From NCBI RefSeq assembly GCF_030384885.1, contig NZ_CP128613.1: 64,000 nucleotides of DNA; one strand, written 5' to 3'. A program made the position numbers. Of this stretch, positions 6,001-12,000 are shown piece by piece. Numbering within the stretch: position 1 is the stretch's first letter; the number at the start of each line of letters is the position of its first letter. The DNA is from Escherichia coli. GTDB taxonomy: Bacteria; Pseudomonadota; Gammaproteobacteria; Enterobacterales; Enterobacteriaceae.

Positions 6001-9000
6001 CAAATCAAGCCAGTGCTCAATCCACGCCACAGCGTTGCGACCAATCGGCAGGCGGCGCTCTTTGCTGCCTTTCCCCATCACCCACACTTCACCGGACTCC
6101 AGGTCGAGGTGTTTGATATCGAGCCCCACCAGTTCGGAAAGACGCAGACCCGCGCCGTACATCACTTCCAGCATTGCCCGATCGCGCACGGCGAGGGGAT
6201 CGTTGATATCAATATCCAGCAGCCGATTTATATCATCGACGTCGATATTTTTCGGCAGATGACGCGGCGCTTTCGGTGCCGAAACACCTTTTGCCGGGTT
6301 AGCTTTGAGTTCGTTCTGGCTGACCAGCCAGTCAAAAAAGCTACGTAGTGCAGAGAGGCGTAATGCGAGGCTTGCCGCGACCAGCCCTTTACGGCGACTG
6401 CGTACTGCAAAATTGCGCACCATCGTCACATCACATTGCTGCCAGCTTTGCAGGCCGTTTTCGCTGGCAAAATTGATGATCGCCTCAAGCTGGCGCTGGT
6501 AGTTAAGCAGGGTTATCGGGCTAAGCTGACGCTCCACGCTCAGATAACGTAGGTAGCGTTCTACATCGGTGTGTAAATCGGTCATACGCGTTCAATCCAA
6601 CGCTCCAGAAGCTCCGGCAACATCAGCGCAATTTCATGAAGTAACTGCGTTCCCTGCCCTTGTTGATAGTGACTGGCATCGCGGCTGGTGAACAGCACGA
6701 CACCCAAATCAGCATCGCTTCCCAGCATCGACATCGCCACCGATCCCACCGCTTTCGCTTCCGGTAGCACCACCAGCAGCTCCGGTCCGTTAAGCGGCCC
6801 AAGATAGTGCTGTTCCTGCCCCAGACGCTGAATACGCAGCGGTTCGAAAGACTGACGGCTTAATGCGAGATGAGTGTGGTTCGACGGCGCACCTAAGCGC
6901 CAGCGATCCGGAAACAGGCGCAGACTCGCACCTGCCAGGCCGAGATCGCGCGCCCAGCGGTGAAAACGCATCAGCATATCGTCGAGACTGCTGGCGGCGG
7001 TGAGACTACGCTGCAGGTAAAGTAAGCGATAGAACAAGCCTTCGTTGGCGATAGCCTGTTCCATCAACAGCGCCATGTTCTCTTCCAGAACATGAATATG
7101 ATGACGTGCGCGGGCCATGTGCCACTCGACCAACGAAACGGTGCCGCGTACCGGATGCGGCACACGTATCGCTTCTACTGCGCGCGCATTGCGGATAAAA
7201 AACTCAGGATTTTTAATCAGATAATCGACAACCGCCCGGTCATCTAGCTCCGTGAGTGTTTCCTGCAGTTCTTCCCCTGGTTGCTTCATAGATGAATAAA
7301 TCCGTCGTAGACATGTACCGCCGGGCCAGTCATATATAACGGGTGACCCGGACCTTTCCAGGCGATATCAAGACGACCGCCGGGGAGTTCCACGCGTACT
7401 TCTTCGGCCAGCAAACCTTGCTGAATCCCTACCGCCACCGCCGCACACGCGCCGCTGCCGCAGGCCTGGGTTTCTCCTGCCCCACGCTCATAAACGCGTA
7501 AACGAATATGCTCGCGCTTAACCACTTGCATAAAACCGATATTAGCGCGCTCCGGAAAACGTTCGTGGCTTTCCAGAACAGGACCAAGCGTTTCTACCGC
7601 TGCAGTATCGACATCATCAACCTGAATCACGCAGTGCGGATTTCCCATCGACACCACGCCGCATAAGATTGTCTGCTCGGCGGCGCGCATAATATAGGTC
7701 TTTTCCGCTTTGTTAGCGCGAAATGGCACGGCAGAAGGTTCGAAGTTGGGTTCGCCCATATTTACGCGCACCAGATCGTCATCGGTGACGGTCAGAACCA
7801 TCCGCCCGTTGGCAGTGCTGACGCGGATATCGCGCTTATTGGTCAGCCCTTTCAGGCGCACAAAGCGGGCAAAGCAGCGCGCGCCGTTGCCGCACTGCGC
7901 CACTTCACTGCCATCAGCATTGAAAATGCGATAGTGAAAATCCAGTTCCGGATCATACGGTGGCTCAACCACCAGCAGTTGGTCAAACCCTATCCCCAGG
8001 TGCCGATCCGCCAGGCGACGAATCAGTTCTGGTGAAAAAAAGACATTCTGCGTTACCGCGTCGACGACCATAAAATCGTTGCCAAGGCCATGCATTTTCG
8101 AGAACTGCATCATTTACTCCAATCACGCGGGTACAGAAACTGACTTTTAGTAATTCACCTGGGATGGACCATCGCCAGTGGCGCGATCGTTTTTATCCGG
8201 CACCGTGGATTGCGTTTGCGTCTCTACCGGTTTGGTCGGTGGCGGTGCGTTTTTATCTGCAGGCGGGAAATAGAGCGGACCTTTCAGACCGCAGCCCGTC
8301 AGGCTGAAGAGAGTAAGTAATACAGTGAGTGCCTTAAACACGTTTTTCATTATGGATTGCCTGTAAAGTTCATCGCTTTCTGCTTTCTATCATCGCAGGA
8401 GAAGACGTAAAAGCAAGCGTTTAGCGACTCTTTATGAAGTCTGAAAAATGAGGAATTGCTGCGAGTATAACGCTTACACGTGGTGATTTATGTTTTGCTG
8501 GTAGTTTCGTGATCGGCACCTCGCGCCAGGATGGCTTTATGCACTATCGCAATGTGGTTTGTTTGTTGTCTTGTTCGTTATTCTTATCCCCGGCATGGGG
8601 ATGTCGGCTTTCCGCGCCTGAACATAATATTTACCAGAAACAGGGAAAAGGCGTGGTGTACCTGCGCCCTTATAAAGAAACAAATCTTTCTCTACCTGAC
8701 GTGAATTACAAGAGTTTGCGTCGTTTACCTAATTTATTAATAGACGCAACAACACAAGATGAATGGAATAAAGAACCACCTCTGACTGATCTAACAACTG
8801 ACAACCTCTATGAGGGCGCACAAGCCTGGTATCCCCATTACTCCTGGCATAGCGATGGTCGCTATATCCTCTACGCGGGTGAAGTAGTGCAAAATCCTCA
8901 CGACGCACCACCCGTCGATATCGCCTCATTCAAGGCATGGGGAGATTTTGCCGCGGATAAACACAGTCTCTATTTTGAAGGCAAGCGCACCGATAACAAT

Positions 9001-12000
9001 GGCGGGGGAAATAGCTTAGATATCAAAACACTGCATCAGGTGGAATTCCGGCCTCCCTGGGATCCTGACTTACTGGGGCTGATATTACGTGACGCTAATT
9101 TCTTGTATATCAATGGGCATCGCCTCGCAGATCCCGATAGTTTCCGTGTGCTGGCACAAAAGTCATGGGATCAGCGAGGAAAGTTTTCTACCGCGTTTAA
9201 TCCCTGTGTGGCTATGCCATTTGGCCCTTGGGATACCCTGGCTCGTACACGGACCAAAATCCTGATCAACGGCGAACAGCTTGATGCCGACCCGGACACC
9301 TTTTCCGTCGTGCGCTGGATGCCCGGCTCACTCTTGACCTGGCGTGATAAAAACGGGCTACAGCGTAAAGTCCTCGACAAGGAAAATCTGGCGTGGGATG
9401 AAGATTTAACAAAGCACTGTCTGGATTTTTCTCTGCTGGAAAAGAAAGTGTTCTGGCGTAAAGGGCCTGCTTGTAAACAGGAAGAAGTACCGGGGCTCGA
9501 TCCTGAACAGTTCCACCCCATCAGTGATGCTGTCGCCCAGTATCAGGATTCGCTTTATACCATCATCGAAACAGAGTCTGGTGACCGCAACCTGGAGATC
9601 GTAAAACTTGATGATCCCAATCTTATTATCAACAAACGTTTCAACGCCGGGAAACGCCATGGCTATTTACTTACGCGTGCCGAAGGGTGGCCAAACCATT
9701 CCGGTTTACACGTGTTTGAATCTGACGGACCGCTGATCTTACTGGATAACCACTCTCCGGATGAACGCGAAGCCCATCTTGATGACCATCCCTTTTTGCG
9801 CAGATGGTATGCCCGCGATAACCGCTACGTTTACAGCTTTGATGGCGCGCAGCTCTGGCGATACCGCACCGCGGATCCGAAACAAGTTCGCTTAATCTGG
9901 AAGGAACAACATTCGGGATATGGCTATGGCGTAAATTACAAAACGGGATATCTGGACGGAAAAATTACCGATGACGGCGAATTTATTCCTGCCCCGCGCA
10001 ATGAGGCGACAAAATGAAAGGTCAAATAATCACAGTTGCACTCATCCTGTTGGGGCACACATTTCTGACACCTGCTGTACAGGCCATAGGGTTCGACTAT
10101 TACAATGATCACGGTGTTATGTCTTACGGTAAAGGTTATGGGGAGGATGAGAAAATTATTGCCCAATTTCCGAAGATGAACAGAGCCGATTTGCGCCTTG
10201 TGACAAATATATCCGGGAAGCGGGAGTTAGTGGAAGGCTATATACCCACCGATGAAATAAGCATAAAAAATGAGGAATACCACTGGGTGACAGACGGCCA
10301 CGTTATTCTCTGGCGTGGCAAAATCGTTAGCAATCCACCGGGAACACCCACTGTCGATATTGCCAGCTTTCAAGCTATGGGCCGCTTCGCGGTCGATAAA
10401 TATAGCCTCTATTTTGACGGACAGCGCACCGAAAGTAATAGCGGCGCGTCACGTGTTGATCTGGCGACACTAAAAGCTATCGAAGGTAACTCTACCACGC
10501 TGGTGGATAGTAAAAATCTCTACTTGTCCGGTCGACGTCAGGGGAGCAGCAGTAATGTTACTGTATTAGAAAAAAGATGGTGGGGTATTAATCCACGTCT
10601 TATGAGTGTAAACAGAAATTTGTATTCCAATGATCTGCTTATCCGCAGTGGGCAGAATATTTATTTAAATGGCGTTCACCTTACGGCAAATGCAGACTCA
10701 TTTGAGATAATTCGCTGGATACCTCATTCACTGCTGGTTTTTCGCGACAATAAGGGTATGCATCGTTATCCCTTTGGTCAATTATCAGGCAAGGCAATAC
10801 CCGTAGATGATGACGTCTCTTTTGAAGTAGGGGAAAGTCGCGTTCGCTGGCGTAAACAGCTCACGCCCGACCGTCAGTGGAGCCAGTGGATAGACCTACC
10901 AAGTATTGAACCTGAACAATTTCATCTGATTACTGACAATATTGCGCAGTATAAAGATCGGCTGTATGTAACAAAATTATCGACTTTTGGTGAAGACCAG
11001 CTTGAAATAATCCCGCTGGATTCGCCAGACCTGGTCATTGATCACTCATTTAATCGCGGCAAACAGCATGCTTACTTTATCCACCAATTACGGTCACGCA
11101 AGAGCGTGCAAATTATTCCAACTAACAGCCCGCTAACTAAAAACGATCGCTTTGCTTATGACGATCGCAATGTTTATACATGGACCGATACAGAGGTAAG
11201 GATTACACCCTCCCCCTGCCCAGCGAAAACATACGTCAGAGAAAAGAATGTCCGTGAAATTCATAACAGCGACATTATTATTCCGGTGACGGAGGAATCG
11301 TGCCGGAACGCAGCAGCAGACGGGCAAACTTTGAAGCCCTGACACCATGCCGCTATACTGCCGCCATCACCTTAAAACAGGAAACAACAATGAACGACAG
11401 TGAATTTCATCGCCTGGCTGATCAACTCTGGCTGACCATTGAAGAGCGTCTGGATGACTGGGATGGCGACAGCGATATCGACTGCGAAATCAACGGCGGT
11501 GTGCTGACCATTACCTTTGAAAATGGCAGCAAAATCATTATCAACCGTCAGGAACCGCTGCACCAGGTTTGGCTGGCAACCAAACAGGGCGGCTACCATT
11601 TTGATCTGAAAGGCGACGAATGGATTTGCGACCGTAGCGGCGAAACCTTCTGGGATTTGCTGGAACAGGCGGCAACGCAGCAAGCGGGTGAAACAGTCAG
11701 TTTCCGCTAAGATTGCATGCCGGATAAGCCTCGCTTTCCGGCACGCTCATCACGAAAAATACTGCTGTAATAGCGGCGTGTCGTGATCCTGATTGGCAGG
11801 CGGCATGTTGCCGATAGATTTGGTGCGGAACGGAATCACCTGTTCACGACCATCAACCGTCACAATTTGATAGAACTGCGGCAGGTTGAAGTTGATGAAG
11901 CTTGAGCCGTAGGTAAAACGGTCGTGCGATGACGAGTAGAAGCGACTGACGTCACGCACCAGCTCCTCTTTGCTGCCTTCGCAGTGGTGATACACCTCAA

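Follow-up and report, generated by a model that had tools for sequence, protein, structure and literature searches.

Tandem DKNYY-like repeat proteins encoded between lptM and cyaY of Escherichia coli and the probable deletion scar of their genes in K-12

We analyzed a 64,000-nt stretch of Escherichia coli contig NZ_CP128613.1 (the window), in which the space between lptM and cyaY is filled by two same-strand open reading frames, here called gene A and gene B. The conserved left flank, lptM (yifL, 8147-8350, minus strand), was taken from the ORF list and PGAP annotation and is divergent to gene A; the conserved right flank, cyaY (11390-11710, plus strand), lies on the same strand as both genes. 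At every lptM-cyaY locus examined, lptM is the neighbor of this family. Gene A (8539-10017, plus) encodes an exported DKNYY-like repeat protein of 492 aa from its ATG (PGAP CDS WP_106907692.1, "DKNYY family protein") and is preceded by the Shine-Dalgarno motif AGGA at 8528-8531. A mechanical ORF list gave an alternative GTG start at 8509, corresponding to 502 aa. Gene B (10014-11342, plus) encodes a DKNYY-like repeat protein of 442 aa (PGAP CDS WP_106907693.1). Direct reading located a 4-bp ATGA overlap of the two genes at 10014-10017 and a GAGG motif at 10003-10006, by which gene B is translationally coupled to gene A. E. coli 2013C-4282 is 100% identical to the window in this region, and PGAP annotates exactly these two CDSs there. 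The divergent 5' region between lptM and gene A (8351-8538, direct reading) shows 97-98% identity in K-12, Nissle, and others; a sigma-70 consensus scan of it returned no site and an Rfam search no match. Upstream of cyaY, a consensus scan picked out a promoter-like site, TTGAAG-17-TATACT (11331-11359, plus), which overlaps the 3' end of gene B and falls within the part retained by K-12.

The initial annotation had described a tandem paralogous pair with N-terminal signal sequences, and both descriptions held. The adjacent ORFs share 34% identity over 324 aa (BLASTP, E = 1e-58), the four peptides it quoted were all found verbatim, and both N-termini are hydrophobic. The gene A signal peptide, MHYRNVVCLLSCSLFLSPAWG|C (8539-8604, plus), ends in A-W-G-C, with the Cys22 codon read at 8602-8604, while gene B starts with MKGQIITVALILLGHTFLTPAVQA|I and an A-V-Q-A|I site. 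All A-type orthologues retain the Cys directly behind the signal peptide, with AWGC shared by E. coli, Citrobacter, Klebsiella, Salmonella, and Pseudocitrobacter; paralogues have canonical L-A-C or Q-A-C, also T-A-C, at the same place. A-W-G-C gave no match to the strict PROSITE-type lipobox [LVI][ASTVI][GAS]-C, as the W at -2 is non-canonical. With its conserved Cys, gene A nevertheless probably encodes a membrane-anchored lipoprotein. Gene B most likely encodes a soluble periplasmic paralogue, as part of the overall identity reading given below.

Both proteins contain repeated beta-hairpin units with D-K-x-x-(L/V)-Y-(F/Y)-x-G and (A/G)-D-x-x-(S/T)-F motifs, such as DKHSLYFEG, DANFLYING, ILINGEQLDADPDTF, DKYSLYFDG, and IYLNGVHLTANADSF. 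Counting DK-x-x-hYY-x-G (2-3 per protein) before AD-x-x-SF (1-2 per protein), gene A gave 3 + 1 and gene B 2 + 2 matches, compared with means of 0.07 and 0.0 in 2,000 shuffles. The earlier recognition of DKNYY-like repeats without an assigned function was borne out. PGAP already uses the name "DKNYY family protein", and DKNYY (PF13644 / InterPro) itself has no assigned function. The proposed Pfam check gave a divided answer. The two proteins themselves stayed below significance against DKNYY (gene A, best domain E = 4.9; gene B, E = 0.025 and 0.073), and no NCBIfam model matched either one. However, 16 of 40 relatives matched PF13644 at E <= 1e-3, and hhalign of the N-module profile against bona fide DKNYY repeats returned a probability of 97.5% (E = 5e-12, 130 columns). 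The canonical repeats used for this alignment all match Pfam (4/4, best 2.4e-23). In addition, canonical DKNYY repeats occur C-terminally in distant full-length relatives, and the best-ranked structural neighbors are DKNYY proteins, which may share the predicted fold. Judged by transitive and profile methods, the A/B family is homologous to bona fide DKNYY repeats. It differs from them in being small and mostly enterobacterial (1.84 billion representatives yielded only 128 clusters at 50% identity), in its architecture of ~430 aa with a DKNYY-like N-module and a conserved ~170-aa C-domain, and in pairing a Cys-type with a soluble protein. For annotation, the name "DKNYY family protein" stands in this case for a separate enterobacterial subfamily of lipoprotein-like and soluble pairs.

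The AF2 model of gene B is all-beta, with a pLDDT of 84.7 and a pTM of 0.75. A beta-propeller-like fold had been suggested, and this did not stand: no closed ring of 4-stranded blades with a strong match to known propellers was found. Structural searches gave no match to an adhesin, Ig, or lectin fold. The invariant residues of the family are aromatic, Gly, or Asp repeat positions, with no conserved His, Ser, Cys, or Glu set among them, and neither protein matched an enzyme family in Pfam, NCBIfam, PADLOC, PHROGs, or PDB. The lack of an enzyme family match and the restriction of invariant residues to repeat positions point to binding rather than catalysis. A literature search on gene A and gene B found no reports.

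At least 80% of the pair is held by 1,394 of 5,426 complete E. coli genomes, and 1,394-1,589 of them (about 26-29%) keep the pair, including Nissle 1917, ATCC 25922-type strains, and many O111 and O145 STEC. The pan-genome survey showed that the pair is not universal in E. coli, but neither is it rare. Neither a well-characterised family nor a universal pair of known function emerged. Four unrelated chromosomal sites (lptM-cyaY, cycA-ytfE, MFS-osmF, and hda-arsC) each have a Cys-type and an AxA-type paralogue in tight adjacency. One lipoprotein-like and one soluble paralogue is thus a recurrent module, which is a new point. Natural fusions join A to the C-half of B, and an AF2 model of A-linker-B (pTM 0.62 over 917 aa) is weakly suggestive of A:B pairing. 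Adjacency at four sites, the fusions, and this model together argue for the pair as a functional unit.

As initially annotated, the pair is absent from K-12, where only fused gene ends remain. The 462-bp K-12 intergenic region corresponds to window positions 8351-8695 plus 11266-11389. K-12, like most E. coli, has kept 157 nt from the start of gene A, joined to the last ~77 nt of gene B, and the missing segment (8696-11265, 2,570 bp) is the deletion that created yzcX, annotated by PGAP as a frameshifted, C-terminally truncated DKNYY pseudogene. The junction, 8695|11266, is identical in K-12 and strain 20AR0300. Because both gene ends are retained at one identical junction, the K-12 state is a deletion, and the yzcX region is in all likelihood the scar of a single ancient deletion of the A-B operon. 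Identifying yzcX as the scar of a two-gene operon is useful for annotation. The arrangement lptM-[DKNYY-like genes]-cyaY also occurs in Citrobacter, Klebsiella spallanzanii, Pseudocitrobacter, E. albertii, Salmonella Infantis, and further enterobacteria. No integrase, IS element, tRNA, or flanking repeat was found at the locus, and no copies were found on genuine plasmids or phages. We are confident in an identity reading in which A-B is an operon of two genes that Enterobacteriaceae inherit vertically and often lose, encoding two divergent DKNYY-repeat, all-beta, non-enzymatic envelope proteins.

Variation within the pair is concentrated in gene A. Between the window and Nissle 1917, a hypervariable, cassette-like segment (8650-9250, plus; residues ~38-237, the DKNYY-repeat N-domain) has 57-81% nucleotide identity, versus 93-100% elsewhere. 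Alleles of this segment in E. coli fall into discrete identity classes: >=99% (17 genomes), 90-95% (949), 80-90% (188), and 60-80% (636). The window type has 83-87% amino acid identity to E. albertii and Pseudocitrobacter versus 72% to Nissle-type E. coli. By these sequence comparisons, the N-domain of gene A exists as ancient, discrete, trans-specific, cassette-like allele classes, also a new point. Gene B has a small variable patch (10151-10250, plus; residues ~46-79) with 76% nucleotide identity to Nissle, flanked on both sides by 93-100%; residues 41-85 show 76% amino acid identity and include a 4-residue indel. For the gene A segment against Nissle, dN was 0.21 and dS 1.6; the resulting dN/dS of 0.13 indicates old alleles under purifying selection, with positive selection not demonstrable. 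Across the pair, dN/dS was 0.13-0.5, with gene B reaching 0.46-0.5, which suggests that the ORFs are maintained. These values are roughly 3-27 times those of dapF and cyaY. This raised dN/dS, the allele classes, the variable copy number (1 to 4), and the frequent remnants are consistent with conflict-type evolution.

As a best guess of low confidence, we propose that A and B are a polymorphic binding pair of the periplasm that acts in defense. Anchored A and soluble B would jointly form a binding or recognition pair, with specificity set by the polymorphic DKNYY domain at the N-terminus and cohesion provided by the conserved domain at the C-terminus. The pair might capture or neutralise periplasm-acting agents of competitors, such as T6SS, colicin, or lysozyme-type effectors, analogous to MliC/PliC and periplasmic T6SS immunity lipoproteins but with no genetic linkage to any effector. 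Identity and mechanism taken together, this explanation falls somewhat short of an even chance. If the defensive part is true, one E. coli in four would have its envelope protected by an unrecognised, allele-specific layer now lost from K-12, with bearing on gut strain competition and on probiotic and pathogen fitness. A stronger version is decidedly unlikely: that A-B is the founding example of a periplasmic immunity or recognition system without effector linkage, "hard-wired" in the chromosome, in which the cassette-swapped N-domain of an anchored and soluble DKNYY-repeat heterodimer would set the toxin (T6SS, colicin, or other) or phage component neutralised, with balancing selection keeping ancient alleles across Escherichia and neighboring genera.

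The initial annotation took the pair as inserted between lptM and cyaY, and a recently acquired accessory island would fit its absence from K-12, its patchy distribution, and a slightly lower G+C content (42-52% vs 52-58% in the flanks). We consider this scarcely credible, as both gene ends survive in K-12 at a clean deletion junction, other genera have genes in the same slot, and mobility genes, repeats, and copies on true plasmids or phages were not found. A mobile insertion or genomic island was rejected, since the shared deletion junction and cross-genus synteny contradict insertion. The pair could instead be a decaying, non-functional relic that a quarter of E. coli simply have yet to lose. 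Both E. coli loci often show loss or a pseudogene remnant, one copy is truncated in Escherichia sp. MOD1, and the upper dN/dS of gene B would agree with decay. Nevertheless, dN/dS stays well under 1, the 492- and 442-aa frames are intact in about 1,400 genomes and several genera, the genes have kept their start-stop coupling, Shine-Dalgarno sites, and signal peptides, and the gene B model is confident, so that we regard a relic as very improbable.

Two alternatives propose another function for the pair. In one, A would be an outer-membrane, possibly surface-exposed lipoprotein holding B, and the complex would act as an adhesin, receptor, or shield toward host, phage, or colicin, with N-domain alleles arising from frequency-dependent selection on an exposed epitope. 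Under the Lol sorting rule, lipoproteins lacking Asp at +2 go to the outer membrane by default; gene A, with its Cys-type N-terminus, has Arg at this position and no Asp, and its allelic hypervariability is limited to one domain. We rate surface display as unlikely, given that gene B has no anchor, that surface-exposure machinery, ushers, autotransporters, and barrel partners are all missing from the neighborhood, and that no PHROG or phage association and no adhesin, Ig, or lectin fold match was found. The other alternative, an envelope-biogenesis accessory tied to lptM, would make B a carrier and A its receptor for a lipid, LPS, or lipoprotein cargo, like LolA/LolB or the Lpt beta-jellyroll bridge. 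LolA is a soluble carrier and LolB a homologous outer-membrane lipoprotein receptor, so that by analogy the soluble and anchored paralogues of the periplasm could follow the same logic, and lptM synteny is conserved across several genera. However, LolA/LolB are essential, conserved, and unlinked and form an unclosed beta-barrel, whereas A/B are dispensable, polymorphic, and adjacent. About 71-74% of E. coli, K-12 among them, lack the pair, the three other loci with equivalent pairs show no lptM linkage, and a hypervariable binding domain is hard to square with a conserved cargo. A biogenesis role is thus quite improbable.

For the defensive binding pair, two kinds of known proteins offer comparison. 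MliC and PliC are membrane-bound and periplasmic lysozyme inhibitors, respectively, homologous non-enzymatic binding proteins that protect the envelope. Anchored and soluble homologous versions are what we propose for A/B, although this is analogy only: MliC/PliC are small 8-stranded barrels of ~100 aa with a known ligand, are not adjacent genes, and have no sequence or fold similarity to A/B. The second comparison is with immunity proteins of T6SS modules. None of about 14 genomic contexts examined placed family members inside an effector-immunity module or beside a VgrG/PAAR/Hcp-linked effector, two E. coli T6SS clusters contained no A/B homologue, and searches of Pfam, NCBIfam, PADLOC, and PDB sequences matched no described immunity family. 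At 440-490 aa, A/B are also large for immunity proteins. All of this counts against a defensive reading, as do the purifying selection on the hypervariable segment and the non-canonical lipobox of gene A.

A further new point, which could favor the defensive reading, is an orphan DUF3304 gene that about 1,117 E. coli genomes have directly upstream of the pair and in the same orientation. This gene shares 93% identity with the immunity gene of an E. coli VgrG-DUF4123-DUF3304-Tle1 T6SS module, and DUF3304 is the Tli1 immunity family, a beta-sandwich (PMC13133936). Periplasmic exposure, tandem paralogues, and patchy presence are common to Tli1/DUF3304 proteins and A/B, and the orphan gene occupies the A/B slot; however, the two are not homologous, A/B are 3-4 times larger, and A and B were never seen beside an effector. 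Because the DUF3304 neighbor is absent from the window strain and all other genera, its adjacency perhaps reflects a mere permissive insertion slot. In other strains, positions 8430-8598 are duplicated around the inserted DUF3304 gene, and genes have been gained and lost repeatedly in the lptM-cyaY slot, this captured orphan T6SS immunity gene among them.

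The interval between lptM (8147-8350, minus strand) and cyaY (11390-11710, plus strand) holds two plus-strand genes, A (8539-10017, 492 aa) beside lptM and B (10014-11342, 442 aa) beside cyaY. The initial annotation had described them as a tandem pair of secreted DKNYY-like repeat proteins, and this description held: all of its quoted peptides were found in A and B, and the genes are real, named as DKNYY family proteins in RefSeq. Window 8351-11389 is 100% identical to E. coli 2013C-4282, isolated from human stool in the USA, whose RefSeq record places two 'DKNYY family protein' coding sequences in the matching region. 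On reading the sequence, AGGA lies 7 nt 5′ of the ATG of A. B starts within the ATGA stop of A and is preceded by GAGG, again 7 nt upstream, which indicates that the two genes are translationally coupled. Their products are paralogues (34% identity over 324 aa, E = 1e-58), and both begin with a signal peptide. That of A ends in A-W-G-C, and that of B has a signal peptidase I site, A-V-Q-A with cleavage before I. DKNYY-like units are much commoner in both proteins than in shuffled sequence.

Direct family searches gave little. Scans of A and B against Pfam, NCBIfam, PADLOC and PHROGs returned nothing significant, the sole Pfam match being DKNYY (PF13644) at E = 4.9 for A, which is not significant, and at a borderline E = 0.025 for B. 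The family is small: an exhaustive search of 1.84 billion cluster representatives by HMM recovered 128 relatives at E ≤ 1e-3 (33 at E ≤ 1e-30). Among 40 relatives, 16 matched PF13644 at E ≤ 1e-3. Distant full-length relatives carry the same ~430-aa module fused to canonical DKNYY repeats that match Pfam strongly (best E = 2.4e-23), and hhalign aligned the enterobacterial N-module profile to these repeats with a probability of 97.5% (E = 5e-12). B was modelled with AlphaFold2 (AF2) on a 40-sequence alignment; the model was confident (pLDDT 84.7, pTM 0.75) and all-beta. All entries that Foldseek returned from AFDB50 were uncharacterised, labelled 'DKNYY family' or 'Lipoprotein', and came from E. 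coli, Shigella, Salmonella, Leminorella, Budvicia and Klebsiella; a sequence search of the PDB found no relative. Together, the profile and structure matches identify A and B as divergent DKNYY-repeat proteins, bearing out the assignment even with direct Pfam matches below threshold. Their subfamily is divergent and uncharacterised, and the known family to which it belongs has no assigned function. Aromatic, Gly and Asp residues of the repeats occupy the invariant positions, and no catalytic constellation was found among the conserved positions. A and B are exported all-beta repeat proteins that do not look enzymatic. Literature searches returned incidental mentions only for DKNYY, a family essentially without literature, and for yzcX, the old name of the K-12 remnant at this site; searches by locus tag and WP accession found nothing.

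The pair had also been proposed to be an insertion at the lptM-cyaY junction, and this proved wrong. The 462-bp spacer of K-12 MG1655 consists of window 8351-8695 joined straight to 11266-11389, and PGAP annotates the remnant (yzcX) as a DKNYY pseudogene, frameshifted and C-terminally truncated. The same junction, base for base, is present in an unrelated strain, so that one ancient 2,570-bp deletion (window 8696-11265) explains the common state. The K-12 spacer is therefore a deletion scar, and the same slot is filled in other genera. Internal sequence (8750-11250) was found in 1,589 of 5,426 complete E. coli genomes; Nissle 1917, 'FDA strain Seattle 1946' and O111/O145/O103 STEC are among the 1,394 that retain 80% or more of it. 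The pair is common in the E. coli pan-genome. No IS element, integrase, tRNA or long flanking repeat was found around it, and no member of the family on a genuine plasmid or phage, the 'plasmid' matches being mislabelled chromosomes. With neither true plasmid or phage copies nor flanking repeats, a mobile-element origin was rejected. A recent island acquired at lptM-cyaY would give the same contrast with K-12, and against the scar and the filled slots elsewhere it is hardly credible. On a 4-kb contig labelled 'MAG: Collinsella sp.' (L015, JAIJJM010000270.1), proteins 93-97% identical to the A-B pair of E. coli are encoded, most likely through E. coli contamination of the bin.

Gene content in this slot varies among enterobacteria. 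Citrobacter sp. FP75 has two genes, Escherichia sp. MOD1-EC7003 three and Klebsiella spallanzanii four tandem paralogues, and one copy fills the slot of a metagenomic enterobacterium. In Pseudocitrobacter vendiensis, E. albertii, Salmonella Infantis and another enterobacterium, the slot encodes just one protein of ~630-675 aa, in which A is joined to the C-terminal half of B. The Salmonella slot corresponds to STM3944/STM3945, for which the literature search returned only the PAP2-like STM3944 and iron, and nothing on the DKNYY gene. In Salmonella and one other enterobacterium, the DKNYY-like gene is separated from cyaY by a gene for a small PAP2-like membrane protein (L027:8692-9081 and L009:10264-10797; the STM3944 slot in LT2 numbering), which the E. 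coli window lacks. Overexpression of stm3944 lowers free intracellular iron, according to a review (PMC8264917). Two real Salmonella plasmids (NZ_CP047533.1 and NZ_LN868946.1, matches H74/H75) carry a short stretch 38% identical to B residues 333-431, covering the C-terminal domain only and adjoining a DUF3021 gene.

Equivalent pairs also occur at other sites. A second pair separates cycA from ytfE in E. whittamii (L024), E. albertii (L023) and E. coli (strain KE47, L028:4540-7000); 271 of the 5,426 E. coli genomes have it complete, and 629 have it either complete or as a remnant. One copy is broken by IS5. Pseudocitrobacter has an equivalent pair between an MFS transporter gene and osmF, and another enterobacterial chromosome has one between hda and arsC. 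In each pair, one member has a Cys directly after the signal peptide (AWGC, SLAC, AQAC or STAC) and the second has an AxA-type cleavage site, so the recurrent unit is a lipoprotein-like protein with a soluble paralogue. On its Cys, A is probably a lipoprotein.

Compared with Nissle 1917, divergence is concentrated in the DKNYY N-domain of A (window 8650-9250, residues ~38-237), where nucleotide identity is 57-81%; a small patch of B at 10151-10250 also diverges, and the remainder of the pair is 93-100% identical. In Nissle 1917 the two genes are ECOLIN_RS21855 and ECOLIN_RS21850. Across E. coli, segment 8650-9250 falls into discrete classes of identity to the window: at least 99% in 17 genomes, 90-95% in 949, 80-90% in 188 and 60-80% in 636. 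Its dS is saturated (1.6) with dN/dS 0.13, values at which positive selection is not demonstrable; the variants are old alleles rather than products of recent positive selection. The window-type N-domain is 83-87% identical to E. albertii/Pseudocitrobacter and only 72% to the Nissle-type E. coli allele. The C-terminal part shows 94-97% identity across all E. coli alleles and 62-71% to other genera. By this pattern the N-domain behaves as an exchangeable cassette. The N-domain is polymorphic, the C-domain conserved, and loss of the pair frequent. Within 5689-14296, flanking housekeeping genes are 3-5% off K-12, Nissle and others (xerC 95.2%, cyaA ~96% and cyaY 92-96.6% identity; dS 0.3-0.5), a seemingly high divergence for E. 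coli, and only 3 genomes reach ≥99% identity to the pair. The window strain, or this tract, may represent a divergent lineage or a recombinant tract.

About 1,117 of the 5,426 genomes carry a 914-bp insert between lptM and A, oriented as A, after window position 8598 (L003:2749-3662 in E. coli 2009C_3612). A 169-bp duplication of the 5′ region of A (window 8430-8598) flanks the insert, which encodes a 184-aa DUF3304 protein with an N-terminal TM helix. The gene shares 93% and 76% identity with DUF3304 genes in two E. coli T6SS modules, both of the form VgrG-DUF4123-DUF3304-Tle1/DUF2235. DUF3304 is the Tli1 immunity family (PMC13133936), and together with these matches this identifies the insert as an orphan T6SS immunity gene. 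The window strain and the other genera examined lack it. Linkage of A and B themselves to T6SS was considered and rejected: hmmsearch found no A/B homologue in the two E. coli T6SS clusters with these modules, and the contexts of distant relatives yielded no conserved neighbour. The only context with a toxin system nearby is that of P0041, a distant lipoprotein-type relative (L029:7001-15314). It lies outside an Rhs toxin/orphan array, ~1.2 kb past the array's last small ORF, with a hexapeptide-transferase gene between and prophage remnants nearby.

Gene coupling, the recurrent pairing of a Cys-type with a soluble member and the natural fusions of A to the C-terminal half of B tie the two proteins together, and they may associate physically. 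A fused A-(G4S)6-B chain, folded in AF2 with linker-anchored block MSAs, gave pTM 0.62 over 917 aa against an estimated ~0.5 for two independent halves, a value that is suggestive and uninterpretable without PAE. The ligand of the pair would be external, variable and bound in the periplasm. We tentatively favour a defensive role as the best fit: the pair would neutralise periplasm-acting competitor agents. Compartment, polymorphism, copy-number flux and the orphan Tli1 neighbour all fit, and the lack of a direct effector linkage of A and B holds our confidence low.

An exposed outer-membrane complex under frequency-dependent selection could also account for the N-domain classes; we regard it as unlikely. 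A cargo pair of the LolA/LolB or Lpt kind, tied to lptM, would suit the neighbouring gene and the lipoprotein-like member; equivalent pairs stand at sites away from lptM, and this role is rather improbable. Both genes have higher dN/dS (A 0.14-0.21, B 0.27-0.46) than neighbouring dapF (0.05) and cyaY (≤ 0.02). A decaying relic would suit the frequent losses and the dN/dS of B; both ratios stay well below 1 and the pair is common, and we judge decay less probable still. Our results offer four concrete leads for testing: the origin of yzcX as a deletion scar, the conserved pairing of a lipoprotein-like with a soluble paralogue, the ancient cassette-like alleles and the orphan T6SS immunity neighbour.

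An Rfam scan of 8100-11800 matched no RNA element. Elsewhere in the window, the Hfq-binding sRNA isrC was matched at full length at 20967-21089 (plus strand), scoring 145 bits where the gathering score is 39.
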